A stretch of DNA of 36,899 nucleotides from Acidobacteriota bacterium (GTDB lineage Bacteria; Acidobacteriota; Blastocatellia; Pyrinomonadales; Pyrinomonadaceae), in contig JAHEEZ010000002.1 of assembly GCA_024640445.1 (NCBI GenBank), positions 1 through 36,899 of the forward strand, given 5' to 3'. The translations under genes were made by a program, and so were the position numbers. Numbering within the stretch: position 1 is the first letter of the stretch; each line of letters opens with the position of its first letter. Below the pieces are notes generated by a model. That model was not told where the DNA came from and did no database searches. It was given only the letters and a program-made list of their open reading frames with translations. Of this stretch, positions 7,783 through 23,475 are shown piece after piece.

Positions 7783-7812
7783 AAAGGCCCGCTTTCGCGG
7801 GCCTTTTCCTTT
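7783..7812. terminator. Bidirectional hairpin terminator between convergent genes
   Basis: AAAGGCCCGC (7783-7792), TTTC loop, GCGGGCCTTT (7797-7806), then TTCCTTT. It abuts the guaB stop codon at 7811-7813. Confidence 0.6.
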
Positions 7813-9280
7813 AACTCTCCAGCCTGTAGTTCGGCGCTTCTTTGGTGATGATCACGTCGTGCACGTGCGATTCCTTGAGGCCGGCGCTTGTGATGCGCAC
7901 GAACTTGGCGTTCTTTTGCATCTCGGCGATGTTCTTGCATCCCGTATAGCCCATTCCCGACCTGAGTCCGCCAACTAGCTGTGTGACCATCTCCTCCAGC
8001 GTGCCTTTGTAAGCGATTCGCGCTTCGATCCCTTCGGGAACGAACTTTGAATCCGACACGTTGCCTTCCTGTGCGTATCGGTCACTTGAGCCCTTCTTCA
8101 TAGCTCCGATCGAACCCATTCCCCGATAAGACTTGAAAGAGCGACCCTGGTAAAGAATTACCTCGCCGGGGGCTTCCTGCGTCCCGGCAAATAGCGATCC
8201 GATCATCACCGAATCCGCACCCGCAGCTATAGCTTTGGTAACATCGCCCGAGAACTTGACGCCGCCATCCGCGATCACCGGAACCCCGGTTCCTTTCGCC
8301 GCATCGACGCATTCGACGATCGCAGTTATCTGGGGCACTCCTGCCCCGGTCACGACTCTAGTCGTACAAATGCTGCCGGGGCCTATTCCCACCTTTATCG
8401 CGTCGACGCCTTCTTTAATAAGCGCCTCAGTCGCTTCGGCCGTTGCTACATTGCCGGCAATCAGCTGAACGTGCGGGTGCTTTTCGCGTACAGAACGGAT
8501 CGCCTGGATCACTCTGGAAGAATGTCCGTGCGCCGTGTCGATCACTATCGCGTCCGATCTCGATTCGATCAAAGCCGACGCGCGTTCTAGATAATCGCCG
8601 GTTGCTCCGATCGCAGCCGCGCACCGGAGCCGTCCCAGCTCGTCCTTTGCCGCGTTAGGATACTTGATCGCTTTCTGAATGTCCTTAACCGTGATCAGGC
8701 CCTTAAGGTACTCATCCTCGTCAACGACCAGGAGCTTCTCGATCTTGTGCTTCTGAAGCTTTACCTTCGCTTGTTCCAAGGTGGTGCCTATCGGGACGGT
8801 CACGAGCGGCTGTGGGGTCATGACTTCAGCCACCGGAATGTCATATCGCGTCTCAAATCTCAGATCGCGGTTCGTAATGATCCCAACCAGAGTCCCGTTC
8901 TCATCGATCACCGGAACTCCGCTGATCTTGTAGCGCTCCATTATTCCAAGCGCTTCCGAAACAACGGCATCGTCGCGTATCGTGACCGGATCGACGATCA
9001 TTCCGGATTCGCTTCTCTTTACCTTGTCTACCTCTTCGGCCTGTTCCCGAATAGACATATTCTTGTGGATCACTCCTATCCCGCCCTGTTGGGCAAGGGC
9101 GATCGCAAGAGCAGCCTCGGTCACAGTGTCCATCGCGGAGGAGCAAAGAGGTATGTTGAGATCAATGTTTCGCGAGAACCTTGTAGTGGTGTCGGTCTCC
9201 GCTGGCAGGACGTCAGAATAGGCAGGCACGAGAAGTACATCGTCAAATGTAAGTCCTTCTCTAATTTTCTCGGTTTCCAT
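7811..9280 (-). CDS. guaB: IMP dehydrogenase
   Basis: Full-length match to the IMPDH pattern: [10 protein letters not shown], an inserted CBS pair, the catalytic loop [11 protein letters not shown], and GGVKFSGD / GSLFAG motifs. Confidence 0.97.
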
Positions 9281-9464: not shown

Positions 9465-10316
9465 CTAGCCCGCGGTGTTGTCACCGCCTTCCGTATTTCC
9501 CGGTGCAGTGTTGCCAACTCCATCTCCTTCAATAGCGATCTTTCCGGACTCGAGTGTCTTCCGGATGTTTTCCTTGTTTATCTCAAAATCAAAACCGTTC
9601 TTGCGCCAGCTTTCCGGCGGAATCGGAGTCTCGATCTTTTGATCGTTCAGGGTTATCTGGACCGTGTCAGCGAGTCCCTTGTAATAACTCACTTTCACGC
9701 TGTCAGTTGCCTCAGTCTCCCACGGATTGCCGGGCTTAACCACGAAGGAACCCAACTTTCCGTCCACGGTCGACTGGATCGAAAGTTCGGCAGCAGAAGT
9801 GCCGATCTTAAGCTTGATTCCGTCAATATTTGGCAGTGGCGACTTCTGAGGTGAAGGCGCCGTCGAGTTTGTCGCTGTCGTTTTTGAGCCGGGCGAATCG
9901 TCCGAGGCAGGCGAGGACGGAGCCGAAAGATAATTGACCAGCAACATCACTCCCCATGCAAGAAGGCCGAGGATTACGACTGAAAAAATGATTGTTGGTA
10001 TCAGTGGAGGCCCGCTTCTATCGTCGGTAAGGACTTCAGGTTTGTATTTAGCGTGCTTCTCATCTTCCGCGGCTTCTTGCAAAGCCGCGATTCTGGCGTA
10101 TGACGCCAAGGCCTCTCCTTCGTCTACGCCCACGTACTTTGCAAACGATTTGATAAAGCCCTTGTTGAATATTCCGCCGGGAAGTGGACCGTAATCGTCA
10201 TTCTCGATCGATTGAAGATACAGCGCTGATATGCGGGTCTGCTCGGCGACCTCGCTGATCGAAATCTCGCGATCCTCCCGAGCCTTCCGCAGCTTTTCCC
10301 CCAAAGATTCAGCCAT
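9465..10316 (-). CDS. rodZ: RodZ-like cytoskeleton/shape protein (HTH domain, single TM, DUF4115-like C-terminus)
   Basis: N-terminal XRE-type HTH LGEKLRKAREDREISISEVAEQTRISALYLQSIENDDY...GFIKSFAKYVG. One TM (PTIIFSVVILGLLAWGVMLLV), a Ser/Pro linker and a beta-rich C-terminal domain. Confidence 0.75.
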   Translation of the reverse strand: MAESLGEKLRKAREDREISISEVAEQTRISALYLQSIENDDYGPLPGGIFNKGFIKSFAKYVGVDEGEALASYARIAALQEAAEDEKHAKYKPEVLTDDRSGPPLIPTIIFSVVILGLLAWGVMLLVNYLSAPSSPASDDSPGSKTTATNSTAPSPQKSPLPNIDGIKLKIGTSAAELSIQSTVDGKLGSFVVKPGNPWETEATDSVKVSYYKGLADTVQITLNDQKIETPIPPESWRKNGFDFEINKENIRKTLESGKIAIEGDGVGNTAPGNTEGGDNTAG

Positions 10317-10464
10317 TTTTACTTGTTCCGGCCCGTGTCTGACGAGCGATCCGACTTCAGCGACAAAGGGGAAATATATCGTTAAAATCGCAATAATGTC
10401 AATTCTTTACAGGAATTTAGGCGTCGGGGATTTGGCTTGATTAATTGCCGAAAGGCGTGTTACG

Positions 10465-10495
10465 TTTACACGATACCCGTTTCTTGTAATAGAAT
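10465..10495 (+). promoter_or_regulatory. Candidate sigma70-like promoter for the BMC-H gene
   Basis: TTTACA (10465-10470), then TAATAG at a 16-nt spacing or TAGAAT at a 19-nt spacing. GAGGA Shine-Dalgarno 8 nt upstream of ATG 10530. Confidence 0.3.
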
Positions 10496-10529
10496 CAGCA
10501 TTCAATCAAAAACAGCGAGGAATTCATAG

Positions 10530-10910
10530 ATGACTCTGGAAGCACTTGGCATGGTCGAAACGAAGGGTTTCGTCGGAGCCGTTGAGGCGGCAGACGCGAT
10601 GGTAAAAGCGGCCAATGTCACGCTTATCGGCAAGGAATACATTGGCGCCGGATATGTCACGATCTTTGTCCGCGGAGATGTCGGAGCGGTGAAAGCGGCG
10701 ACCGATGCCGGAGCCGCAGCGGCGAGGCGGGTAGGAGAGCTAATCTCTGTACACGTGATCCCGAGACCCCACGCGGAGGTGGAAGAGGTGCTTCCCGGAA
10801 AAGCGATCACACAGGGAAAGTCGATCCGAGGCGCGCAGGGCGCGCTGGGTTCCGGCGCTGACTCCCCGGCTGCTACCAAGGCAGCCCAGTCAAAGTCAAA
10901 ATCCAAGTAA
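10530..10910 (+). CDS. Bacterial microcompartment shell protein, BMC-H (PduA/EutM/CcmK type) with a ~37-aa basic low-complexity C-terminal tail
   Basis: Canonical PF00936-type sequence [78 protein letters not shown]. The tail ends in SKSKSK. Confidence 0.9.
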
Positions 10911-10916
10911 TGCCAT

Positions 10917-10970
10917 GCCCGGCCACCGCCTTGCGCATTCGCGCCTGCGAGCGGCGAGCCGGGCTTTTTG
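10917..10970 (+). terminator. Intercistronic terminator/attenuator-like hairpin between the shell gene and the AldDH gene
   Basis: GCCCGGC (10917-10923) pairs with GCCGGGC (10958-10964). An inner CCGC/GCGG stem extends it, and TTTTTGGCCCTTTTGG follows. Confidence 0.45.
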
Positions 10971-10997
10971 GCCCTTTTGGGCCCCTCGACATCATCA

Positions 10998-12716
10998 ATG
11001 ACGGACAAGGACCTGGTTTCGCAGCAAGAAGCAAGAGACGCGGTTGAGGCAGCGCATCTTGCTTTTCTTGAGTTAGCGCGGTTTGACCAGAACAAAATAG
11101 ACGGTATTTGCGAGGCTATGGCGAACGCGGCGCTGGCCGAGGCGGCGCGTCTGGGTCAGGTTGCGTTCGATGAAACGGGCTTCGGAGTTGCGGACGACAA
11201 GAGAGAGAAGAACCGTTTTGCGGCAGAAGACGTCTGGAACTATTTCAAAGGGCTGAAGACGGTCGGCGTGGTCCGGGATAACGGCGACGTGGTTGAGATC
11301 GCCGCACCGAGGGGAGTCGTCGCGGGCATCATCCCATCCACCAACCCAACCTCAACTGCGATCTTCAAGATCATTATTGCTGTAAAATCCAGAAATTCGA
11401 TAGTCCTCTCGCCGCATCCTTCAGCCGCCAACTGCATCGCCGAAACCGCTCGTGTGATGGTTGCCGCCGGAATTGAGGCGGGTTTGCCCAGGGACGCCGT
11501 GCAGTGTCTTGTCTCTTCGACGATCGAAGGCACTGAAACGCTGATGAAGCACAAGCTCACGGCGGTGATCCTTGCGACTGGAGGTATCGGCCTCGTCAGG
11601 GCCGCATATTCCTCGGGCAAGCCGGCATTCGGCGTCGGGCCGGGAAACGTTCCGGTTTACGTCGAAAGTTCTGCCGATCTGGAAAAGGCAGCATCTGACA
11701 TTCTCACGGGAACATGTTTTGACAACGGGACCATTTGCGCGTCTGAGCAGTCGGTCGTCGTCGATTCCTCGGTGGAAAAAGCCCTCCGTGCGGAATTCGA
11801 GGCTCGAGGCGGACATTTCCTGTCACCATCTGAGGCTGACCAGATCGCCAAGGTTCTATTGACCCCCCAGCGGACTCTGAACTCGAAGATAGTGGGGAAA
11901 CCCGCCGTTCATATTGCAGAACTCGCAGGAGTTTCGGTTCCGGCAGGAACACGATGCCTGATCGCGGATTGTGGTGGCGTGGGCCGTGATTTTCCCTGGT
12001 CTATCGAGAAACTTTCGCCCACGCTCGCCTTCTTCGTTGTAGAGGGCGTTGAGGCCGCGTCCGCCAGATGCGAGGAGATACTTCGTTTTGGGGGGATGGG
12101 GCACACTGCGGGAATGCATACCCGGGACCGGGCCGCGGCGATCAGATACGGATCTCGGATGCCCGCGGCGAGGATCGTGATCAATTCGCCGACTACGCAC
12201 GGGGCCATAGGGTTTTCGACCGCGCTGCCGCCTTCGATGACACTCGGGTGTGGCTCTTGGGGCGGTAACGTGACTTCGGACAACGTTTCGCCGCACCACC
12301 TTATGGATATCAAGCGGGTAGCGTTCGAGACCCGGTCGGTTGTCTCTGACAAAGCTGCTGAAAGGAGTTCTTTCCGGACGGACCAGCCAGGCACTCCCGT
12401 GCCGGCGAGAAAAATAGAACGCAGCGAGATCGCGTCGATCGTCGACGAGTTCCTAAGCAGGAAGCTCGCAGAAGCACCGCCGGAACCCGTTGGGGGCCGG
12501 ATGGAGGCGGAATCTTCTAAACAGGCGGTAATACATGAGGTCGCTTCGAAAACAGCGGAAGGTGGATCAAGGAAGAGTCCAGTCGATTTCGTCAGCGAGG
12601 ACGATGTGAAGATCGCGGTTTCCAAAGGCGAAAAGATCTACGTAAACAAGAAGACGATCATAACTCCGGCCGCAAGGGACCTGGGCGGCCAGCATGAGGT
12701 TTTCGCAGAGGTCTGA
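10998..12716 (+). CDS. CoA-acylating aldehyde dehydrogenase (AdhE N-terminal-domain type) with a ~130-aa non-ADH C-terminal extension
   Basis: Blocks shared with the AdhE ALDH half: [53 protein letters not shown] (Cys codon 11736-11738), [21 protein letters not shown] 10998 is preferred; the track start at 10968 is a TTG. Confidence 0.88.
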
Positions 12717-12760
12717 TCCCTATTCGAGGTTAGTCTAAGTCCATTCAGGGCGTATCTGAG

Positions 12761-13219
12761 ATGTCTCAAACCCCGGCTCATAAACCTGTTTGTTCCGAAT
12801 GCGGTTCCGAAACCCTCGGCCCGGCGCTTTTCTGTTTCCATTGCGGCGCCCGGCTTGGAAGCGATGCGACCGAAACTGAGACGGGAGCGAAAGCGGGGTC
12901 TGATCTGGAGTCCGTAGATATTACCGGGAAGGCGATAGCTCCGCCGCCGGGCGACCCGTTTACAGCTACAGCGGATGTAGGATCCGACTTGGCCGTTGAA
13001 GAAGTGGCATTGCAGGATGAAAATCTTGAACCGAGCATGGATTCGGGCATGGCCACCGCGTCAACGCTGCGAAAGAACCCTGGAGTCATGAGGATGCGCC
13101 GGGTTGAGGTGCGATGGGCGTCAAACGAGGGGTCACCGAACATCTGGTTTATCGTCGCTTCGATCGTGCTTTTCGCACTGGTGTTCGGCGTTTTTCTATT
13201 GTCGATGATCCTCAGGTAG
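12761..13219 (+). CDS. Zinc-ribbon protein with an acidic disordered middle and a C-terminal TM anchor, function unknown
   Basis: CSECGS...CFHCGARL (CxxC-x13-CxxC) at the N-terminus. C-terminal TM IWFIVASIVLFALVFGVFLLSMIL. Strong terminator downstream. Confidence 0.55.
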   Translation: MSQTPAHKPVCSECGSETLGPALFCFHCGARLGSDATETETGAKAGSDLESVDITGKAIAPPPGDPFTATADVGSDLAVEEVALQDENLEPSMDSGMATASTLRKNPGVMRMRRVEVRWASNEGSPNIWFIVASIVLFALVFGVFLLSMILR

Positions 13220-13241
13220 AATCGGGAATCTAATGAAAATG

Positions 13242-13276
13242 AAAGGGCAGACGATCGAATCGTCTGCCCTTTCTTC
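13242..13276. terminator. Bidirectional hairpin terminator between convergent genes
   Basis: GGGCAGACGA (13245-13254), loop TCGAA, TCGTCTGCCC (13260-13269). T-runs follow on both strands. Confidence 0.65.
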
Positions 13277-13292
13277 GTGAAATTCCGATAAA

Positions 13293-14396
13293 TTAACGGT
13301 TTGCAGGTCTCAGGCTTGGTCCGGCATTGTCCTTCTTTGGTACGACAAGACCGGTTCTCGTGATTGCTATCCTCTTTTGTTTGTCAGTTCCTTCCTTCAC
13401 AACAACCTTAATGTTCCTGTAAGCGCCTTCAGGCTTTGTGTCGTCGGGCAAGTAACCGATCGAGTATTGCGTTCGAAGTTCGCTCGCGATGTCCCCTGCG
13501 ATCGTATTCAGCTCAGACAGGTCGTTCGGGAAGTATGACTTTCCGCCCGTCTCTTCAGCCAGTTTTTCAAGAAAGCTCCTCGCGCGTTTTTGAGGACTCT
13601 TTCGGACAAAACCGCCTTCCTTGTCCAGTTCGTTCACAAATCCTACGGTATATATCTGAACATCCGCCTCCCTCAACAGATCGAACAACTGTTCTTCCTT
13701 GTAATAGCTAGCGCGGTCTTCACCGTCAGAAACGAGGATGAGGGCCCTGCGCTTCCTATCTTCGGGAGCCTGGCTTCTCTCGTATTCGTCGACCTTTTCT
13801 GCGGCGAGATACACGGCGTCAATTATCGCCGTCTGCCCGCCTTCGATGTACATGTTGTCCAGCGCGTCGAAAAGTTCGTTCTTGTCCGTCGTAAAATCCT
13901 GAAGGATCTCGATCTTGTTAGAGCTGACAAATCTCACAACGCCTGTCTCATCATCCGGTCTGTTCGTCTCGACGATGATCTTGCTCGCCTCGATCACCTT
14001 TTCAAGCTGAAACCTCAGAGATCCGGAATTGTCTATAACGAGCGCGTAATTTGTAGGGACCTCCGACTGAGAAAAGAAAGATATTGGCTGGGCGCGTCCG
14101 TCCTCGAAAACAGTGAAATCATCCTTGCTAAGATTTGCGATCGGTCGATTGAACCTGTCGACGACCCTAACGTTCAGGTTCACGAGCTCCGTGTCGATAA
14201 TGAGCGGTGAATCGTCTTCCTTCGGAAGAGGAGGCGGGGGAGGCGGTATAAGTGGTCCGTCCGGAGGAGTCGCCGACGGCGATGGAGACCCAGGGGACGT
14301 CTGCGCGCTCACCTTGTCCGGGACCAGAGAGGCGGTCAGGAAAACCAAGGTGGCAAAGGACAGAATAACCAGTGATAGGAAAAAGGATCGTTTCAT
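13293..14396 (-). CDS. Secreted VWA-domain protein (acidobacterial VWFA-related family, TIGR03436-like)
   Basis: Signal peptide MKRSFFLSLVILSFATLVFL, Pro-rich linker, MIDAS motif DNSGS, then TAIIDA and VSDGEDR, and the family-typical C-terminus YSIGY...YRNIKVVV. Start moved to ATG 14396; the longer ORF would overlap the upstream paralog. Confidence 0.8.
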   Translation of the reverse strand: MKRSFFLSLVILSFATLVFLTASLVPDKVSAQTSPGSPSPSATPPDGPLIPPPPPPLPKEDDSPLIIDTELVNLNVRVVDRFNRPIANLSKDDFTVFEDGRAQPISFFSQSEVPTNYALVIDNSGSLRFQLEKVIEASKIIVETNRPDDETGVVRFVSSNKIEILQDFTTDKNELFDALDNMYIEGGQTAIIDAVYLAAEKVDEYERSQAPEDRKRRALILVSDGEDRASYYKEEQLFDLLREADVQIYTVGFVNELDKEGGFVRKSPQKRARSFLEKLAEETGGKSYFPNDLSELNTIAGDIASELRTQYSIGYLPDDTKPEGAYRNIKVVVKEGTDKQKRIAITRTGLVVPKKDNAGPSLRPANR

Positions 14397-14431
14397 TAGT
14401 GCTTTGGCGGTTCCCGAAGGCCGCGTGAATT

Positions 14432-15424
14432 CTAACGGACAGTGATTCGCGGTGTTGCGTAGTAGCCTTCTCGATTGCGGACCGTTAGACGCGGCAATCC
14501 TCTTGGAGGTTTGACCTTCACTTTGACGCGGTGCCATTTTCCATCCGGCTCGAAGCCTTTGGGCGTGTATCCGATCGAATACTGGTGCCTCAGCTCAAGC
14601 GCAATACGCTCGAAGATCTCATCCATTTCGACAGCTGAGGTTGGATAAAAGGACTTTCCGCCCGTGACGCCGGAGAGTTCATCCAGAAAAGCCTGTCCCT
14701 GAAGACCTTCTTGAGAGGAAACGTCGCGACCGTCCATTATTCCTACCGAATAGATCACAACGTCCGATTCCTTCATCAGACGGCGAACTTCCTTGAAATT
14801 GTAACGCGATGCATTGTCCTGACCGTCGCTGATTATCAGAAGCGCCTTCTTCTGATGAGTACCGCGGGTTACCCGCTCAACTCCCAGATAACACGCGTCA
14901 TACAGCGCGGTGTTATTCTTGGGTTCGACGAGGGTGAGTTTGTTCAGCACCGCCTCGCCGTCCCGAGTCCGATCCATCAGAAGCTGGGCCCGTTTGTTGA
15001 AGGCGATCAGATAGTATTCGTCGCGGGGATGGCTGGTGTTTATGAACCTCTCCAGTGCGTTTCTGGCTTTCAAAATCTTTTCTCCGCTCATCGAGCCGGA
15101 GACATCGAACAGGATCCCGATCGAAACAGGCGCGTCATCATCACTAAAAAAGGTGATCTCCTGTTTCTCCTTGTCGTCATATATAGTGAAAGCTTCTTTG
15201 GTAAGTCCGGAGACGTAACGACCGTAATAATCGGTCACAGTCAGGGTTAGGGTCACCAGATCCGTTTCGACTGTGATCTCGGGTTTGTTCTCAACACCCT
15301 GAACAGGGGGCGTTGGAGTGGTTTCCTGGGCCAGGAGCACGGGAGCTGATAAAACGAGGATGAGAAAAATCAGACAAAGCCGAGCATAGGGTTGGCCCCG
15401 GCCTTGAACATTACTAAAAGCCAT
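14432..15424 (-). CDS. Secreted VWA-domain protein (acidobacterial VWFA-related family, TIGR03436-like), tandem paralog
   Basis: Signal peptide LCLIFLILVLSAPVLLAQE, MIDAS DVSGS, then TALYDA and ISDGQDN, and C-terminus YSIGYTP...WHRVKVKVK...REGYYA. Confidence 0.85.
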   Translation of the reverse strand: MAFSNVQGRGQPYARLCLIFLILVLSAPVLLAQETTPTPPVQGVENKPEITVETDLVTLTLTVTDYYGRYVSGLTKEAFTIYDDKEKQEITFFSDDDAPVSIGILFDVSGSMSGEKILKARNALERFINTSHPRDEYYLIAFNKRAQLLMDRTRDGEAVLNKLTLVEPKNNTALYDACYLGVERVTRGTHQKKALLIISDGQDNASRYNFKEVRRLMKESDVVIYSVGIMDGRDVSSQEGLQGQAFLDELSGVTGGKSFYPTSAVEMDEIFERIALELRHQYSIGYTPKGFEPDGKWHRVKVKVKPPRGLPRLTVRNREGYYATPRITVR

Positions 15425-15686: not shown

Positions 15687-16922
15687 ATGGCCGAATTCAT
15701 TTGTCGTTTGGGTACGCAGTCCGGTGAGGTAGTCACGCGGGTGGTCGAGGCCGCCAGTGACAAGGATGCGCGCACCCAGCTTGAGGAGGAAGGTTTTCGG
15801 GTTTTTCGAATCGCCGCGGCCGGCAGCGGCCTTAGCGCCGTACTGTCCGGACGAAGCGTTTCAAACAAGGGGCGGGTTAAACAGAACGACTTTCTGCTTT
15901 TCAATCAGCAGTTTTCAGCACTTCTTCGAGCAGGCATACCGGTTCTTCAATCGATTGGACTCCTTCAACAACGATCTCCGTCAGGGACACTAAGATTAAT
16001 TCTCGCTGATGTCGAAGAGAAGATCAGAAGCGGCATTCCGCTTTCAGAGGCTTTTGAATCGCAAGGAGTCTTCCCCAAGATATATACGGCTTCGCTCCTC
16101 GCCGGTGAACAGAGCGGGGCCCTCGATGACGTTCTTGCCCGGTATGTTCATTACCTGAGAAGAAGTGTCGCGATCGCGCGCAAATTGAGGGGAGCGCTCG
16201 CCTATCCGCTCTTCCTTATGACGGCCGCTTCGCTGATGGTCGCATTCCTGGTGCTCTACGTGATCCCAAGGATGTCGGAACTGTTCAAAGGACTAAACAC
16301 TTCTCAAAGCCTTCCCACGGTTACTGTTGTCGTCCTCGCCATCTCAACAGCGTTGGCGAAGAACATATGGTGGGTGATCCCGTTGCTGATAGTTTCTGCG
16401 ATCGCCCTTTATTTCTGGCTTCGCACTCCTTCCGGCAGACTGGTTCTGGATAACATTCTGCTGAGATTGCCTCTCGGCGGGACCCTGATAAGGCAGATGG
16501 CAACAGCTCAGCTTGCCCGATCCCTTTCGACTTTGATCTCCGGAGGACTTACGGTACCTGAAAGCTGGGATATCGCGTCACAGGCGATCGGGAACTCGGA
16601 GCTTCGAAGGAGAAGCCAGTCAGTGCTTCCCTTGATACGTGAGGGGCGGATGTTCACTGATGCGCTCGCTCAAGCGAACTGGATGCCGGAACTGGCGCTT
16701 GACATGATCGGGATCGGTGAAGGGTCAGGAAGCCTTCGGGAAATGCTCGATGAGGTGGCGAACTTCTATGACGCGGAATCAGAAGTAAGACTAGAACAGC
16801 TGACGACGCTGCTCGAGCCGGTAATACTGGTGATGATGGCCGGCATTGTTGTGGTAATACTCCTCGCCATCTATTTGCCAATTATTCAAACGATTGCTGC
16901 CGGTCCGTACGGCGCGAGATAG
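15687..16922 (+). CDS. gspF: Type II secretion / type IV pilus platform protein (GspF/PilC family)
   Basis: 411 aa with duplicated T2SSF-type domains and three TM segments. N-terminus MAEFICRLGTQSGEVVTRVVEAASDKDARTQLEEEGFRVFRI is typical of GspF. Confidence 0.9.
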   Translation: MAEFICRLGTQSGEVVTRVVEAASDKDARTQLEEEGFRVFRIAAAGSGLSAVLSGRSVSNKGRVKQNDFLLFNQQFSALLRAGIPVLQSIGLLQQRSPSGTLRLILADVEEKIRSGIPLSEAFESQGVFPKIYTASLLAGEQSGALDDVLARYVHYLRRSVAIARKLRGALAYPLFLMTAASLMVAFLVLYVIPRMSELFKGLNTSQSLPTVTVVVLAISTALAKNIWWVIPLLIVSAIALYFWLRTPSGRLVLDNILLRLPLGGTLIRQMATAQLARSLSTLISGGLTVPESWDIASQAIGNSELRRRSQSVLPLIREGRMFTDALAQANWMPELALDMIGIGEGSGSLREMLDEVANFYDAESEVRLEQLTTLLEPVILVMMAGIVVVILLAIYLPIIQTIAAGPYGAR

Positions 16923-16969
16923 ATCAGGCGAGTCGAACGGATACGGTCCGACGCGCATCAACAAACGAA

Positions 16970-18667
16970 ATGCCAATCGATATGCAAGAGCAGACAAATA
17001 CAAGCGGGCAGCAGGAACCGTCCAATTCCCAATCGGCCGTCGCCGATTTTGTAGAGAACGAGCCGCCCGAGGTTACTGCGGCAAAAAAGATCGCCAAACG
17101 TTACAGGCTGCCCTATATAGACCTTCTGCCTCCGGACAAGGAATCTCCGATCGATTACGAAGAACTTGCCGCGATTCCTGTGGACCTTATGCTCAGGAAT
17201 CAGTTCGTCCCCCTGAAGAGGGAAGGAAGAGGCCTGCACGCGGCGATGGCGGATCCGACAAACCTAGAACGCCTCGACGAGCTTGAGAACGCTTTGAACG
17301 TCAGGATAATTCCTTACGTAGCCACCTCCGGCGCGATCGACGTCGTGCTTAAGAAAGGCGACGCGACTCAGAGAGTTCTTCAGGAAGCTGCCTCCGGGTT
17401 CAGGATCTCGCTGGTTAAGGAGACCGAGCATGGCGAAGAGGTACTCGACCTTGACCGGCTTGCCACGGATTCCGACATGTCGCCCATCATAAAACTGGTC
17501 GACACGATCATTTACAATGCGATGGAATCGAGGGCGTCCGATATTCATATTGAAACCCGAGAGCGCGAGGTCCAGGTGAAGTTCAGGATCGACGGCGCGC
17601 TTTACGCGAAGGTGGACCCGATCGACATCGTCTTCCACCAGACGCTTATCTCGCGCATCAAGGTGATGTCCGAGCTGGACATTGCCGAACGCCGTGTGCC
17701 GCAGGATGGTAGGTTCAGGGTCCACTACAAAGGCCGCACGGTCGATTTCCGTGTTTCGATAATGCCCACGGTTTACGGCGAGGACGCCGTCATTCGTATC
17801 CTCGATAAGGAACAGATATCGGAAGAGTTCAAGAATTTGAGCCTGGACGTTGTCGGTTTCCACCCTGATGATCTGAAGCGGTTCCGTATGTACATAAAGG
17901 AACCGTATGGAATGGTCCTGGTCACTGGGCCGACAGGTTCGGGTAAGACGACAACTTTGTACGGAGCCTTGAACGAGATCAGGAACGAAGAGGACAAGAT
18001 CATCACGATCGAGGACCCGGTCGAGTATCAGCTGCACGGGATCGTCCAGATCCCCGTGAACGAAAAAAAGGGCCTCACGTTTGCCCGCGGACTTCGCTCG
18101 ATCCTGCGACACGACCCCGACAAGATCATGGTCGGTGAGATCCGCGACGAGGAAACGGCCGATATAGCCATTAATTCGGCTCTGACTGGCCACCTGGTAT
18201 TCACGACCGTTCACGCGAACAATGTGATCGACGTTATCGGGCGCTTCCTCAACATGAAGGTTGACCTGCATAACTTCGTGTCATCATTGAACTGCGTGCT
18301 AGCTCAGAGACTTGTCCGGCTTCTCTGCCAGACTTGCAGACGCCAGTACGAACCGCCGATCTCCGAGATTCGCGAATCTGGGCTCAAGCCGGAGGACGTG
18401 CTCGGGAAGACCCTCTTTATGAATGTCGGCTGCGATGCGTGTAACCACACCGGATACAGGGGCAGGACGGCAATTCACGAATTACTTGATATGACCGATC
18501 CGATCCGTGAGATGATCATCGCCCGCCGACCGGGTTCCGAGATCAGGCGGCAAGCGGAACTGGAAGGACTGATCAGCCTGCGCGAATCCGCGCTAAGAAA
18601 GGTATTTTCGGGTGTGACGACGCTTCACGAGATCAACAGGGTCACATTCGTTGAGGATGTTCGTTAA
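16970..18667 (+). CDS. gspE: Type II secretion / type IV pilus assembly ATPase (GspE/PilB family)
   Basis: T2SSE_N-like N-domain, Walker A GPTGSGKTTT, Asp box, Walker B MVGEIRD, His box, and the tetracysteine motif CQTC...CDAC. Confidence 0.93.
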   Translation: MPIDMQEQTNTSGQQEPSNSQSAVADFVENEPPEVTAAKKIAKRYRLPYIDLLPPDKESPIDYEELAAIPVDLMLRNQFVPLKREGRGLHAAMADPTNLERLDELENALNVRIIPYVATSGAIDVVLKKGDATQRVLQEAASGFRISLVKETEHGEEVLDLDRLATDSDMSPIIKLVDTIIYNAMESRASDIHIETREREVQVKFRIDGALYAKVDPIDIVFHQTLISRIKVMSELDIAERRVPQDGRFRVHYKGRTVDFRVSIMPTVYGEDAVIRILDKEQISEEFKNLSLDVVGFHPDDLKRFRMYIKEPYGMVLVTGPTGSGKTTTLYGALNEIRNEEDKIITIEDPVEYQLHGIVQIPVNEKKGLTFARGLRSILRHDPDKIMVGEIRDEETADIAINSALTGHLVFTTVHANNVIDVIGRFLNMKVDLHNFVSSLNCVLAQRLVRLLCQTCRRQYEPPISEIRESGLKPEDVLGKTLFMNVGCDACNHTGYRGRTAIHELLDMTDPIREMIIARRPGSEIRRQAELEGLISLRESALRKVFSGVTTLHEINRVTFVEDVR

Positions 18668-18891
18668 CGGGCGTTTTGGTGTCGCCTTTCCTTGTCGCGG
18701 GAGGAGCCTGAAAGGGCACTGTAAACCAATATGGAATTTGCTTTTTCGGCATATTCACTTCAAAATATGGATTGTTGCGAGCCTTCATTTTCTTTCCGCA
18801 ACTTTTCCAGCACTAATTCGTGTATTTCTCCTATCGATGCCCGGCGGATCAGCGGCCGGGTGCCCGTCAACAGGATTCCCGGAAGATAGCC

Positions 18892-21414
18892 ATGAACAAT
18901 TCGAAACGACTGCGATTTGTAATTACCCTCTCTTTGTTGCTGTGCCTGCTTTCACCTACCGTTGTGTTTTCCATGGGCGAAGGCAAGAAGCATTTCAAAC
19001 AGGGCATGAAACATGAACAAGCTGAGGAATGGGACAAAGCTGTTGAAGAGTTTGCGCTGGCCGTAACGGCGGATCCGAAGAACCCAGAGTACAGGCTTCA
19101 CTTCCGCAGGGCGTTGTTCAATGCTTCGCAGATGTTCATGAAGCGCGGCCGGATGGCGGCGGAAGAGGAAGACTATCTGGGCGCCTACAACGCCTTTAGA
19201 AGAGCTTACAGCTTCGATCCTGTGAACGAACTCGCAAAATCCGAAATGGCCCGGATGCTGAGGCTCCAAAAGGAACTGCTCGGAGTCAACGACGATCAAG
19301 ACAAGGATAAAGCCGATAGCGGGTTCCGCATGGTTCAAACGGGACTTTCCTCCACAAACATTCCTTCGGACGTCGTAATTCCACAGCGGTACGAAAAGCT
19401 TCGAGATCTTCCGTTCCCTTCAGGGATCGATCTTCAGCGGATCGTGCGCGATCTTGCAAATGACCTGGACCTGAACGTACTTTTCGACTCGCAATCCAGG
19501 CTGGACAACAAGAAGGTAAAGATCGAATTAAAGAATGTCACCGCCGCCCAGGCTCTTGACGCCATCTTTCTTCAGGAAGGTCTGTTCTTCGAGAAGGTCG
19601 CCCCACGGACCATCATTGTCGCCACTTCAAACCGGAGACAGTTTTTTCAGCAGCTTGTATTGAAGACCTTCTATCTCGGCAACGCCGACCCCAAGAAAGT
19701 TGCGGCGGTGCTTCAGAAGGCGATTCCCGCGCAGCCGGGGCGAACACCTACCAACGTACTTACGGACGAAGATACAAACAGTATCACCATTCGTGACACG
19801 GCGGAGAACATCAGGCTGATGAGCGATCTGATAGCGGCCCTGGACAAGGATCGCGCCGAAGTGGTGATGGACGTTCAGATCTACGAGGTGTCGAAGAACG
19901 ACCTTCTTGAACTTGGCAATCAAATTGGGAATAGAGCTTCCCTTACAAATATTGGAGGCGCTTTGCCCGGCATCGTTCCGCTAAATGGGGTCCCCGTAAG
20001 CATACCGGACGGTTCGATCGTGAGCACAGCGATAGGTATTGTCCTGAACACACCGTTTACAAGCCTGTCGGCTTTCCAGCAAAGATCAAATACAAAGCTC
20101 CTGGCCTCAACACAGATACACGCATTCAATAACGAGGATTCTTCCGCCAGGATCGGTCAGCGCGTACCGGTCCAAACGGCACAGTTGCCCAACTACTACG
20201 CCCCTACGCCGGAAAATCCGACCAATCCCGGCAATGCTTTTGGAGGCGGCTATCCGGTGATCAATTATGAGCAGGTTGGGCTGACTTTGAAATTCAAACC
20301 GATCGTGTTCCCTAATCAGGACGTTCAGGTAGCTATGGAGATCGAGTCCAAAGAAGTTCTGGACAAAAATACCCTGACCCCTTCCTTCACTGAGCGCACA
20401 ATCAAAGGAACTGCACGCGTACAAAACAACAAGACGCTGCTGCTTGCGAGCGTCGCACAGGGCATCGAGAGCGAAGCCAGGGAAGGAATTCCGTTTCTTG
20501 GACTGATCCCGATCCTCGGGAGACTGTTTACCGTGCCTAAGCAAGACAACCGCCAGGTTGACATTGTAATTGCGATAACGCCGCGAGTTATTCGCGCACC
20601 GGCGATCCTTCCGGAAGATACAATCGAGAGGCCGACCGGAAGCCTCGCGGTCCCGACAAGCGGCTCGCTTGAGGCGCTGGTGGTCAGGGAAGAGATCGAG
20701 CGTCAAAAGACGTTCGCGCGCCGCGAGAAGCGGGACGTAAATGTCCAGCTTCCCGATGCTGATGTGCCGGAGTACGTAAAATCAAATGGCGATGAAGCTC
20801 TTTCGGTGAACGAAGCGGAAAGTTCAAATGCTCCCGAACCCGATGCCTCATCGTCACCTTCTTCGGCTGCGATCGCAACGGGACTCAAGCCGATAGACAC
20901 GGGAATGAAGTCGCTTTCGATCACACCTACATCTTCGGCGCCGGGGAACACGCTTGCCCTGAATCCGGTCTCGCTGCCGAGTTCGGGCATAGAGTCCGAG
21001 ACGGGTGATGCTGAAAATACGCGAATGGCTGAATTGCAGTTTCTTCCCAAGCCGGGAATGTTGCGGGCCGGCGAACGCACAAAGCTCGCGGTGTTGGTCC
21101 GCGGAGCTTCCATTTTCCGCTCGGCGGTGATCGGATTGAAGTTCGATCCGGCTAGAACCACTGTGCGTTCGGTCCAGTTTGGCGATGTTTATGGAAAAGA
21201 GCTTTCGCAAACGTCAGCGGATCCGTTCCTAAATGAAGGCGGCAAGCTTTATGTGTCCTTGATCGCTCCAAACGGTTCCTCGGAAAACAGTTCCGGCGTG
21301 CTTGCTTTCATCGAGATCGAGGCGTTAGCGGACGGCGTTCCGATGATCGAATTTGATCCCGAGATGATCAGCCTCCTGACCGCGTCAGGCGATAGTTTCC
21401 TGGTGAAGTTCTAA
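18892..21414 (+). CDS. gspD: Secretin (GspD/PilQ family) with an N-terminal TPR-like region and a C-terminal cohesin-like domain
   Basis: Signal peptide MNNSKRLRFVITLSLLLCLLSPTVVFS. Secretin core shows NSITIRDTAENIRLMSDLIAALD, VMDVQIYEV, TLLLASV...GIPFLGLIPILGRLF and IVIAITPRVI. Start moved to ATG 18892. Confidence 0.85.
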   Translation: MNNSKRLRFVITLSLLLCLLSPTVVFSMGEGKKHFKQGMKHEQAEEWDKAVEEFALAVTADPKNPEYRLHFRRALFNASQMFMKRGRMAAEEEDYLGAYNAFRRAYSFDPVNELAKSEMARMLRLQKELLGVNDDQDKDKADSGFRMVQTGLSSTNIPSDVVIPQRYEKLRDLPFPSGIDLQRIVRDLANDLDLNVLFDSQSRLDNKKVKIELKNVTAAQALDAIFLQEGLFFEKVAPRTIIVATSNRRQFFQQLVLKTFYLGNADPKKVAAVLQKAIPAQPGRTPTNVLTDEDTNSITIRDTAENIRLMSDLIAALDKDRAEVVMDVQIYEVSKNDLLELGNQIGNRASLTNIGGALPGIVPLNGVPVSIPDGSIVSTAIGIVLNTPFTSLSAFQQRSNTKLLASTQIHAFNNEDSSARIGQRVPVQTAQLPNYYAPTPENPTNPGNAFGGGYPVINYEQVGLTLKFKPIVFPNQDVQVAMEIESKEVLDKNTLTPSFTERTIKGTARVQNNKTLLLASVAQGIESEAREGIPFLGLIPILGRLFTVPKQDNRQVDIVIAITPRVIRAPAILPEDTIERPTGSLAVPTSGSLEALVVREEIERQKTFARREKRDVNVQLPDADVPEYVKSNGDEALSVNEAESSNAPEPDASSSPSSAAIATGLKPIDTGMKSLSITPTSSAPGNTLALNPVSLPSSGIESETGDAENTRMAELQFLPKPGMLRAGERTKLAVLVRGASIFRSAVIGLKFDPARTTVRSVQFGDVYGKELSQTSADPFLNEGGKLYVSLIAPNGSSENSSGVLAFIEIEALADGVPMIEFDPEMISLLTASGDSFLVKF

Positions 21415-21417
21415 GAA

Positions 21418-22077
21418 GTGAATCGGTTACAACGCATTGGAAGGATACGAAGGATTGCGCCGGGGGCGGATAGCGGATACACGCTTCTGGAACTGGTCAT
21501 CACTCTCACAGTTCTTTCAATCATGATCATGGGTACCATCCCTCTCGCGCAGAACGCAGTGAAAAGGCAGAAAGAGATCCGGCTGAGGCAAACGTTGCGC
21601 GATATCAGGAACGCGATCGATGAATTCAAACGCGATACGGTGGGCTCATGTCCTTTGGGTTCAGTAACCAGCGGTAATCCTACGCAGGTAGGACAGAATA
21701 TTCCGGCTGATCCGAGAAGCAGGGTGGTCATCGATGACTGCACGATCTTCGACACGGAGAACATAGACCGCTACCCGCCGAGTCTGGATGCGCTTGTCGA
21801 CGGCGTCAGAGTGAAACCCAGGGGCCTCTCCGCACAAGCGAGGTCCGGCGGCGTTTTCGCCGACAAGAACGCTACGGAGCTGAACGAACAGAAAGAGGTA
21901 CTCAAGGTCTATTTGCGCGAACTGCCGATCGATCCGATGACGGGTGAAGACGACTGGGAATTGAGGTCTTCATATCAGACTAAGGACTCGAGCAGCTGGG
22001 ATGAAGTGAACGTTTTTGACGTCCGCTCAAGAGCGGGCGGTACCGCCTTGAACGGAGAGAAGTACAGTGAGTGGTAA
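21418..22077 (+). CDS. Large prepilin-type (pseudo)pilin with N-terminal cleavage/methylation motif
   Basis: GTG start and 20-aa basic leader, then G|YTLLELVITLTVLSIMIMGTIPL. Cys pair (GSCPLGS...IDDCTIF). The C-terminus GEKYSEW is shared with the next gene. Confidence 0.75.
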   Translation: MNRLQRIGRIRRIAPGADSGYTLLELVITLTVLSIMIMGTIPLAQNAVKRQKEIRLRQTLRDIRNAIDEFKRDTVGSCPLGSVTSGNPTQVGQNIPADPRSRVVIDDCTIFDTENIDRYPPSLDALVDGVRVKPRGLSAQARSGGVFADKNATELNEQKEVLKVYLRELPIDPMTGEDDWELRSSYQTKDSSSWDEVNVFDVRSRAGGTALNGEKYSEW

Positions 22078-22507
22078 AGAGACAAGAGAATACCTGGAGG
22101 CTGGAAGCGTTGGCCGGACACGACCGTTTGGCACAGCCGGTTTCTCGCTGCTTGAGTTGCTTATCGCGATGTTCATACTCGTGATCCTGATTTCCGTTGC
22201 CGTTCCAACCTACCGAAACAGTGTCCAGCACGCCCGCGAAGTCGTTCTCGAGGAGAACCTGTTTCAAATGAGGCGCGCCATAGACCAGTACGCCGCGGAT
22301 AAAGAACGTCTCCCCCAGTCTTTGCAGGATCTGGTCGATTCGAACTATTTTCGCGACATCCCAGTCGATCCGCTAACGGAAAAAGCGGAATGGAACGAGA
22401 TCGTCGGCGAAGATTCAAATTCGGCCGAAGCAGAACAAGGGCTTGTCGATGTCAAGAGTCTTGCCGAGGGCGAAGACAGCAACGGCAAGAAGTACAGCGA
22501 ATATTGA
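22067..22507 (+). CDS. gspG: GspG-like major pseudopilin
   Basis: G|FSLLELLIAMFILVILISVAVPTYRNSVQHARE...LFQMRRAIDQYAADKERLPQSLQDLV...IPVDPLT matches the GspG pattern. GTG start overlaps the previous gene by 11 nt; the leader is unusually long (25 aa), so the start is uncertain. Confidence 0.8.
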   Translation: MSGKETREYLEAGSVGRTRPFGTAGFSLLELLIAMFILVILISVAVPTYRNSVQHAREVVLEENLFQMRRAIDQYAADKERLPQSLQDLVDSNYFRDIPVDPLTEKAEWNEIVGEDSNSAEAEQGLVDVKSLAEGEDSNGKKYSEY

Positions 22508-22539
22508 ACCCCGGGCACTGCCCGCAAGTACCGATACAA

Positions 22540-23475
22540 ATGTTAAGCAGCCTTACCAAACCGAACTATCCGCGCGCAGCGATGGGTTTCGGCCAGAATT
22601 CTGTGACCGCGGTCGCGCTTCAGAAAGACGGACCGGCGTTCTTTTCCGTGAGGCAGGCAGCGACTGTCGAATTGCCCGCCGGGCTGGTAAATCCGAGTTT
22701 TGTGGATGATAACATCAGTGATCAGTTCGAATTGGCGGAGCACCTTGAGCGGGTTTCTCTCGAATGCGGATTGCGCGGGCAGAAGCAATGGTCGGTCTCA
22801 ATGCCGAGCACGACCGCGAGGACGGCAATACTGTCCATCAAAGAAGTGCCGACTTCTAAGAGAGAGCTTGAAGAGGTGCTTGATTTCAAGGCCGAAACCA
22901 GTTTTGGCGTACCGTCTTCAGAACTCAGGATCTCGATGGACAGGATCAGCCCGGATGCCGAAGGCCGGGCACGTTATTTCGCGACGGCGGTGAAGCTGGG
23001 TGTGATAGACGAGTACGAAACAGTATTTGAATCTCTCGGGTGGCGCGCGGGATTGATCCTTCCGAGGGCAGTTTCGGAACTGAACTGGCTTGCCGGATCG
23101 CGATCCGCTGAAGACGCGCTCCTGATCAGTTCCCAGGAAAACGGATTTACCGCGCTCCTGCTCAGGGCCGGAGAGCCCGCCCTTGTGCGATCCGTGATCT
23201 GCAGGGATGAAGAGATCGATGACGAGATATTCAGGCTGCTTGTTTACTACAAAGACAAGTACGAGGAATCTCCTGAGTCAGGATCATCCGGTCGGTTCCT
23301 CGTTATCGGCGAGGGTTCTCTGGATGATAGATTCGCCGGTATATCGGCAGAAGCGCTTGGCAGATCTGTGAGGCTTCTTGCTCCGGCCGATCTGGGCCTC
23401 GCCTTTCCATCTTCCAGCCTCAGATTCAGTGATATCGCCGCTCCGGCGGGGCTTGCAACTCTTGGCTGGCGTTAG
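22540..23475 (+). CDS. PilM/GspL-cytoplasmic-domain-like assembly protein (actin-like fold), soluble
   Basis: Operon position plus PilM-like pattern (GFGQNSVTAVALQKDG...ELEEVLDFKAETSFGVP...VIDEYETVFESLGWRAGLILPRAVSELNWL). No TM segment. Start moved to ATG 22540. Confidence 0.6.
   Translation: MLSSLTKPNYPRAAMGFGQNSVTAVALQKDGPAFFSVRQAATVELPAGLVNPSFVDDNISDQFELAEHLERVSLECGLRGQKQWSVSMPSTTARTAILSIKEVPTSKRELEEVLDFKAETSFGVPSSELRISMDRISPDAEGRARYFATAVKLGVIDEYETVFESLGWRAGLILPRAVSELNWLAGSRSAEDALLISSQENGFTALLLRAGEPALVRSVICRDEEIDDEIFRLLVYYKDKYEESPESGSSGRFLVIGEGSLDDRFAGISAEALGRSVRLLAPADLGLAFPSSSLRFSDIAAPAGLATLGWR

Follow-up and report, generated by a model that had tools for sequence, protein, structure and literature searches.

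Encapsulation peptides (EPs) target cargo proteins to bacterial microcompartments (BMCs). The BMC type ACI was defined by Sutter, Melnicki, Schulz, Woyke & Kerfeld (2021, Nat Commun 12:3809, Supplementary Data 2) and occurs only in Acidobacteria, mainly in subdivisions 4 and 6. Its main locus encodes a class II aldolase with a C-terminal EP, a hydroxyacid dehydrogenase, a BMC-P triplet and BMC-H, and no EutQ homolog is listed in the published description of that locus. The aldehyde dehydrogenase (AldDh) of this type sits away from the main locus on a satellite locus, sometimes with a BMC-H gene, and carries an EP close to its C-terminus followed by a domain of ~50 amino acids (aa) of unknown function; EUT2-type I AldDh is stated to have a C-terminal EP (Sutter et al. 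2021). Here, we describe the C-terminal segment (12327-12716) of an AldDh that is encoded beside a BMC-H gene in a 36.9-kb stretch of Acidobacteriota contig JAHEEZ010000002.1, the whole of which was analysed and is referred to below as the window. The tail of this enzyme and its reading as an EP were already published in 2021.

The other described system that bears on this tail is EutQ. Helices H1/H2 (residues 9-41) of Salmonella EutQ associate with the shell, and EutQ without residues 9-41 detaches from shells and stays with cargo (Yang et al. 2025 Sci Adv, PMC12487888). H1/H2 is followed by a flexible region and then by H3/H4 (62-99), which binds the EPs of EutC and EutE; addition of EP causes no nuclear magnetic resonance shift in H1/H2, and EutQ 1-99 alone sends green fluorescent protein to the organelle (PMC12487888). 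Catalysis resides in the C-terminal cupin, the N-terminus being dispensable for activity and needed for localisation (PMC12487888). Pull-down of EutM requires the EutQ N-terminus (Held et al. 2016, PMC4827028). A 2026 atlas of complex predictions includes a predicted TIGR02536-EutL complex in Listeria.

We propose that the segment is probably a two-part encapsulation tail of an ACI-type BMC AldDh, consisting of an EP helix and a shell-anchoring module. Among possible mechanisms this one is best supported because the two predicted helices of the module align with H1 and H2 of EutQ, and the module itself is very probably a true homolog of the EutQ and EutT N-termini. What is new here is the assignment, from sequence comparison, of the "unknown ~50-aa domain" of ACI AldDh to the EutQ/EutT H1/H2 module family, which is a modest addition to the published description.

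The translation of 12327-12716 is exactly the sequence quoted in the initial annotation of this DNA and forms the C-terminus of open reading frame (ORF) 10968-12716. The gene as called starts with the ATG at 10998, ends at 12716 and encodes a product of 572 aa, the ORF itself being 582 aa. Conservation was assessed in an alignment of 120 orthologous tails with at least 69% identity and in a wider set of 232 more diverse tails. By this measure the tail is conserved and is not chance sequence, because across the 120 orthologs the helix and the last 44 aa hardly change, while the linkers vary in sequence and length (Table 1). Column identity in linker 1 is 0.16-0.4 with many indels, and its predicted local distance difference test (pLDDT) score is 56-68. 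The distance from the core to the helix spans 28-98 aa across 228 tails, and the other linker range is 23-112 residues. In the helix (consensus REEIAAIVDKFLSxKLAExP), R475, V482, D483, L486 and K489 are invariant, and a helix of EP pattern lies between core and module in 228 of the 232 diverse tails. Between linkers 2 and 3 lies a short conserved motif, unremarked in the initial annotation, with an invariant H513 and with I512 conserved at 0.92. This slot is lineage-specific, being of IIHE type in 160 and of EAGSMY type in 30 of the 232 tails. In some lineages a second amphipathic helix was observed in the motif slot, e.g. SEIAAELASRVFG.

The terminal module is always found at the extreme C-terminus in the 232 tails, and 15 of its columns are invariant among 29 diverse copies. 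A profile search with the module retrieved 639 representatives from a library of 1.84 billion proteins; the best 150 of these 639 matches were all AldDh C-termini, including those of divergent lineages with different core motifs. Short tail matches on long contigs (P0123, P0139, P0140, P0196 and others) were considered as stand-alone tail proteins and rejected as AldDh fragments or mis-called pieces.

The 44-aa block matches a single NCBIfam model, at positions 164-196 of TIGR02536 (E=1.3e-3), which represents a protein of ethanolamine utilisation that is uncharacterised. EutQ and EutT sequences from the eut operon of E. coli K-12 were used for further comparison. BLASTP aligned the module with residues 4-37 of EutQ (E=9e-5) and residues 3-37 of EutT (E=1e-4), and hhalign with a 29-sequence module profile returned 1.6e-4 for EutQ and 5e-5 for EutT. 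A hidden Markov model of 343 AldDh modules was searched against 10,219 six-frame ORFs from the collected loci as decoys. Its top two non-self matches were EutQ (13.5 bits, E=0.023) and EutT (12.6 bits, E=0.043), each aligned through its N-terminus with almost the whole model, and the next match scored 7.0 bits (E=2.4). None of 5000 shuffles of either N-terminus reached the real score. When a consensus-like module was compared with 18,950 NCBIfam models, the top three were TIGR02536, EutT and EutQ, at co-linear positions, and the EutQ N-terminus itself matches TIGR02536 at the same positions as the module. The shared signatures are [IV][TS]xxD[IV]RxA...G and I[IL]TPxAR[DE]. A motif of the form [VI]xxxDVxxA...IITPxARD, which the initial annotation mentioned and could not place, is thereby located at the N-terminus of EutQ and EutT and in TIGR02536.

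The scores are modest but specific, and support for the likeness comes from its consistency across methods of sequence comparison and not from one strong score. Neither the tail nor the 44-aa block matched any family in a Pfam scan. Pfam coverage begins at residue 85 in EutQ and at residue 95 in EutT, and the tail is without a Pfam match because Pfam leaves these two N-termini uncovered. A PDB sequence search with the tail returned nothing, even at E up to 10. One tail fragment (P0151) was independently labelled 'ethanolamine utilization cobalamin adenosyltransferase' by the JGI pipeline. The four carriers of the module, a cupin (EutQ), an adenosyltransferase (EutT), AldDh and TIGR02536, are all microcompartment-associated and otherwise unrelated.

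An AlphaFold2 (AF2) model of the tail was built from a 44-sequence tail alignment. It contains a 17-residue helix (pLDDT 85-94) and a compact beta-alpha-beta-beta-alpha-beta module (pLDDT 94-97) joined by linkers below 70, and the predicted template modelling (pTM) score of 0.39 indicates that the arrangement between these elements is not fixed. In the full-length AF2 model the helix was predicted at pLDDT 70-81, residues 495-525 fell below 50 and the elements stayed independent; the short motif had no confident model either in the tail alone or at full length. No docking of the helix, the IIHE motif or the module on the catalytic core was found in the full-length model, in which the core was moderately modelled from a shallow alignment. 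The module has two predicted helices, at tail residues 97-106 and 120-128, whose counterparts in the alignment with EutQ are residues ~7-16 and ~32-41; these fall within H1 (9-21) and H2 (22-41) as published. In an hhalign comparison of the whole tail with EutQ, only the module was aligned, and the EP helix was unaligned to H3/H4.

The helix has hydrophobic residues at i, i+3, i+4, i+7 and i+8 (I-x-x-I-V-x-x-F-L), as in EutC (QIEEIVRSVM) and EutE (DIEQVVKAVL), the EPs of which served as experimentally validated comparators. Much of what the initial annotation had said of the tail is sustained by these results. It had placed the helix (12423-12476) and the terminal block (12582-12713) exactly, the conserved helix between poorly conserved linkers fits the pattern of the EutC and EutE EPs and is also called an EP in the BMC catalog, and the block it took for a small folded module is confidently predicted as one. 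The outcomes that it had set out as refuting its reading were not encountered: the tail is conserved, a helix and a fold are predicted, and the terminal block matches microcompartment proteins.

On the proposed mechanism, the tail would act as a set of independent elements on disordered linkers, namely an EP-type helix, a short lineage-specific motif and a 44-aa folded module. The terminal module would bind the inner face of the shell, as EutQ H1/H2 does in the Eut microcompartment. The co-encoded BMC-H is a candidate binding partner of the AldDh tail and would be the first candidate partner of the module, and the EP helix would make helix-helix contacts with other cargo, with adaptor helices or with the shell. 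We infer both shell binding by the ACI module and the partners of module and helix. In this way AldDh would need no separate EutQ-like adaptor for its packaging and its attachment to the shell, and an oligomeric AldDh with several tails could itself bridge cargo and shell. Since no EutQ homolog is listed for the published ACI main locus, a single AldDh chain may serve as both cargo and adaptor. The initial annotation had assigned C-terminal targeting to the adjacent shell protein to this tail. The tail as such may well act in this way; the likeliest shell contact would be the module, which resembles EutQ H1/H2, or module and helix together. More tentatively, the module could be a portable, ancient shell anchor, carried by EutQ and EutT in EUT1, by TIGR02536 in EUT2 and by AldDh in ACI and related Acidobacteriota, with ACI AldDh acting as a EutQ-like shell-cargo adaptor.

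Several points weigh against the two-part tail. The helix had been called amphipathic, and this description rests on hydrophobic spacing because the hydrophobic moment is unexceptional: the Eisenberg moment of the helix is 0.3-0.4, unremarkable and not above shuffles, and the maximum anywhere in the tail, 0.55, is equalled in 1229 of 2000 shuffles. The helix is also not terminal, ending ~78-80 residues before the C-terminus with the motif and the folded module after it. The module is C-terminal in AldDh and N-terminal in EutQ and EutT; the TIGR02536 profile likewise carries it close to its C-terminal end (positions 162-202 of 207). EutM and EutL are unlike the ACI shell proteins. That EutQ H1/H2 binds the shell is known from deletion and localisation in Salmonella, not from an interface structure (PMC12487888). 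For this genome our analysis covers the 36.9-kb window, outside which the main ACI locus would lie. Finally, the module is only weakly similar to EutQ and EutT when judged on absolute values (identity of 31-32% over ~35 residues, 12-18 bits). Low scores (12-20 bits) over a module of only ~44 aa would suit a convergent or fortuitous resemblance, with the module being an ACI/AldDh-specific domain of unrelated origin, and a homolog search with the EutQ and EutT N-termini yielded only 67 short enterobacterial fragments, too few for a deep reciprocal profile. We consider this origin distinctly improbable, since four independent tests lead to the same three families, co-linearly and over nearly the whole module, the EutQ N-terminus independently matches the same TIGR02536 positions, and the matched helices are H1 and H2.

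Two other functions of the module were weighed. It could be a cargo-cargo or adaptor domain that binds the EP of other ACI cargo or self-associates and so nucleates the enzyme core, leaving the EP helix alone to contact the shell, as is reported of the EPs of PduP and PduD. The class II aldolase or a small Cys-rich protein, for example, could be the partner, and Pdu EPs are reported, through references given in PMC4827028, to bind shell proteins directly. The long flexible linker between module and helix suits the bridging of two partners under either assignment, and the tail elements have no fixed mutual arrangement in the AF2 model. However, in the only dissected homolog it is H3/H4 that binds EPs, while H1/H2 undergoes no chemical-shift change with EP and its deletion loses the shell and keeps the cargo, which makes a cargo-cargo role rather unlikely. 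Alternatively, the module could be a small ligand- or cofactor-related regulatory domain that modulates activity rather than localisation. EutQ and EutT use ATP and AldDh uses NAD and CoA, which places the module on three nucleotide-cofactor enzymes, and in a Foldseek search of the tail model against PDB the best matches were beta-alpha-beta pieces of Rossmann-type dinucleotide-binding proteins. Those matches were not significant (best E 0.94), however, and the conserved residues, FVSExDV and TIITPxARD, include no Gly-rich nucleotide-binding loop. The module also sits undocked on a long disordered linker in the full-length model, the EutQ N-terminus is dispensable for catalysis and needed for localisation, and every module carrier is BMC-associated; we therefore regard a regulatory domain as highly improbable. 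The two-part tail, in which the module would contact the shell, is the mechanism that we retain.

As the initial annotation had stated, the tail belongs to a microcompartment aldehyde dehydrogenase that adjoins a BMC-H gene. The AldDh core matches TIGR02518 "acetaldehyde dehydrogenase (acetylating)" with 551.7 bits (1.6e-165) over aa 13-478 of the 582-aa ORF. By this match the protein is of the type I clade (IPR013357/TIGR02518-like), yet is not the EUT2 equivalog because its score lies under the equivalog cut-off of 620.1. A Pfam scan assigned the core to PF00171 (8.4e-25) and found no match to the iron-dependent alcohol dehydrogenase (Fe-ADH) domain PF00465 in the whole protein or the tail. 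The AdhE model NF010378 matched at 2.5e-161, covering profile positions 6-467 of 872, i.e. the N-terminal half only. The initial annotation had taken the enzyme for an AdhE with its alcohol-dehydrogenase half replaced; this reading is not supported and was rejected on relative similarity, there being no sign that the enzyme arose from an AdhE through a domain exchange. In a PDB sequence comparison the closest solved structures were standalone acetylating AldDhs (5J78, 488 bits, 2.6e-145; Listeria 3K9D, 448 bits, 3.5e-133), and AdhE N-halves (7DAG, 6TQH, 6AHC) scored at most 397 bits. Because the standalone enzymes outscore the AdhE N-halves, the AldDh is placed by similarity in the standalone type I BMC AldDh lineage and is no truncated AdhE. 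Other-frame ORFs of up to 238 aa overlap the gene (e.g. 11909-12625 on the minus strand; region 11240-12625, minus strand), and no gene is called at the matching positions in related loci; they look like by-products of a coding sequence of ~55% G+C.

Table 1. Coordinates of the AldDh, its tail elements and neighbouring genes in the window
Feature	Position	Strand	Remarks
guaB	7811-9280	-	divergent from BMC-H gene
RodZ-like HTH_25 membrane protein	9465-10316	-	divergent from BMC-H gene
BMC-H shell protein, 126 aa	10530..10910	+	PF00936 4.2e-29; EutM model 5.2e-37
CoA-acylating aldehyde dehydrogenase catalytic core, type I BMC AldDh	10998..12332	+	residues 1-445, catalytic Cys included
Linker 1	12333..12419	+	residues 446-474; Ser/Pro/charged, variable in length
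EP-type helix	12420..12479	+	residues 475-494 (R475-P494); helix of the initial annotation lies within
Linker 2	12480..12512	+	residues 495-505; Pro-rich, variable; indels, low conservation; pLDDT below 50-62
Short conserved motif	12513..12542	+	residues 506-515; consensus SPVKTIIHEL
Linker 3	12543..12581	+	residues 516-528; moderate to low conservation, low pLDDT
Terminal alpha/beta module, 44 aa	12582..12713	+	residues 529-572; strongly conserved
Small zinc-ribbon protein, C-terminal transmembrane segment, 152 aa	12761..13219	+	PF13240 E=2e-4, weak
Tandem VWA-domain proteins (two), then T2SS-F/T2SS-E ATPase/secretin/pseudopilin cluster	13293-15424 and 15687-23475	- and +	

The locus is an ACI two-gene satellite with BMC-H and is typical for the type. 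The BMC-H gene lies directly upstream of the AldDh gene, and in 74 of 75 full-length AldDh loci from species-representative genomes a BMC-H gene on the same strand precedes AldDh by less than 400 nt. The BMC-H domain is near-invariant (>90% identity across the 75 loci), and its C-terminal extension is loosely conserved. In the window this extension (10785-10907) comprises ~35-40 aa, is charged and rich in Gly/Ser/Lys, and ends in a basic cluster. A motif G(L/Y)SPDE(R/K)(A/S)L is semi-conserved in the BMC-H extension of most relatives and is missing or degenerate in the window copy. Promoter-like hexamers were observed on both strands of the intergenic region 10317-10529.

Within the window, no microcompartment gene was found besides BMC-H and AldDh. 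The neighbours are guaB, a RodZ-like helix-turn-helix protein, a zinc-ribbon membrane protein, two VWA proteins, a type II secretion/type IV pilus cluster and ribosomal genes. The zinc-ribbon match to PF13240 scores 21.5 bits, under the curated cut-off of 25. A small gene occupies the same place after AldDh in loci L002 and L003, and the counterpart in L075 is also a zinc-ribbon protein. No terminator-like site was found between 12716 and 12761, and a perfect hairpin with a 15-bp stem (13241-13273) lies between the zinc-ribbon gene and the convergent VWA gene. AldDh and the zinc-ribbon gene are probably co-transcribed, and because the hairpin comes only after the latter and the 12716-12761 interval holds no such site, BMC-H, AldDh and the zinc-ribbon gene may form one operon. 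The divergent RodZ-like/guaB arrangement is conserved in relatives. The VWA pair and the type II secretion system (T2SS) cluster are syntenic with relatives and unrelated to microcompartment genes; synteny is identical in the complete Acidobacteriota genome CP065003.1 and in another metagenome-assembled genome, and the VWA gene pair was recovered in two related genomes.

AldDh orthologs number in the thousands (565-606 aa); the named ones come from Aridibacter, Pyrinomonadaceae, Blastocatellia or other Acidobacteriota, and all of the top 80 species-genome loci are Acidobacteriota. A larger satellite, absent from the window, is carried by 46 species-genome loci (L075:10242-14893 and 45 others among L005-L084). 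It encodes BMC-H, AldDh, BMC-P, an ACT-domain protein, a Zn-ribbon protein, DUF711 (PF05167), a small secreted protein, a second BMC-H and a histidine phosphatase. In the ACT protein, an N-terminal extension of ~45 aa with two amphipathic helices (motif MANE[DE]LIYR[IL]T[KR]AVY..RLG ... VEQLVT[ED][IV]YR) is strongly conserved and leads into a variable Ser/Gly linker. Such an EP-like layout points to the ACT/DUF711 pair as possible ACI cargo. The pair is unmentioned in the published ACI description.

Few organelle types are as widespread in soil Acidobacteria as the ACI microcompartment. The existence of the tail is catalogued and hence no news; its link to EutQ H1/H2 provides the first specific, testable assembly hypothesis for the ACI organelle. 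It also points to the EutQ-type anchor as a BMC module that is general and transferable, carried on at least four unrelated protein scaffolds and lying outside any Pfam family. If true, this would represent a second solution to cargo-shell coupling, in which the adaptor role is carried by the enzyme itself. If confirmed, a 44-residue folded anchor together with an EP helix could serve as a compact two-part tag for loading engineered microcompartments.

Among known systems, the closest is the ACI satellite AldDh of Sutter et al. (2021), which shares with the window protein its taxon (subdivision 4 lineage), a pfam00171 type I AldDh, BMC-H, an EP and the ~50-aa domain. We found no structural difference between the two, and the window AldDh belongs to the same family as the catalogued one. 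The window lineage has the minimal satellite of BMC-H and AldDh, whereas many relatives add BMC-P, ACT, DUF711 and a second BMC-H. EUT2 type I AldDhs (TIGR02518 EutH_ACDH; 3K9D, which is Listeria lmo1179; 5J78) have the same catalytic core, at about 449-552 bits. TIGR02518 is 488 positions long and is matched by the core to position 467, leaving ~20 positions after the core; judged from this profile length, EUT2 type I AldDhs seem to end in a short EP at most and to be without the terminal module. The N-terminal ALDH half of AdhE is homologous to the AldDh core, and AldDh is without the Fe-ADH domain. Like ACI AldDh, the type II AldDhs PduP and EutE are acylating enzymes with an amphipathic EP on a flexible linker, and the EutE EP, DIEQVVKAVLLKM, has the hydrophobic spacing of the ACI helix. 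They differ in that their EP is N-terminal, they belong to another AldDh clade (5JFL scores only 161 bits) and they have no extra folded module.

EutQ's N-terminal region resembles the ACI tail in having a two-helix module of ~35-40 residues, a flexible region and EP-like amphipathic helices on a BMC protein. EutQ, however, is a cupin/acetate-kinase protein that acts as a separate adaptor and bears the module at its N-terminus, whereas the ACI module is C-terminal on a cargo enzyme and follows that enzyme's own EP. Identity between the two modules is only ~32%, and shell binding is known for Salmonella EutQ alone. EutT, an ATP:cob(I)alamin adenosyltransferase, carries the same module at residues 3-42, and TIGR02536 (eut_hyp, from Firmicutes EUT2 loci) carries it at positions 162-202. 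In both, the attached domain and the position of the module differ from those of AldDh, and both, like AldDh, are BMC-locus proteins.

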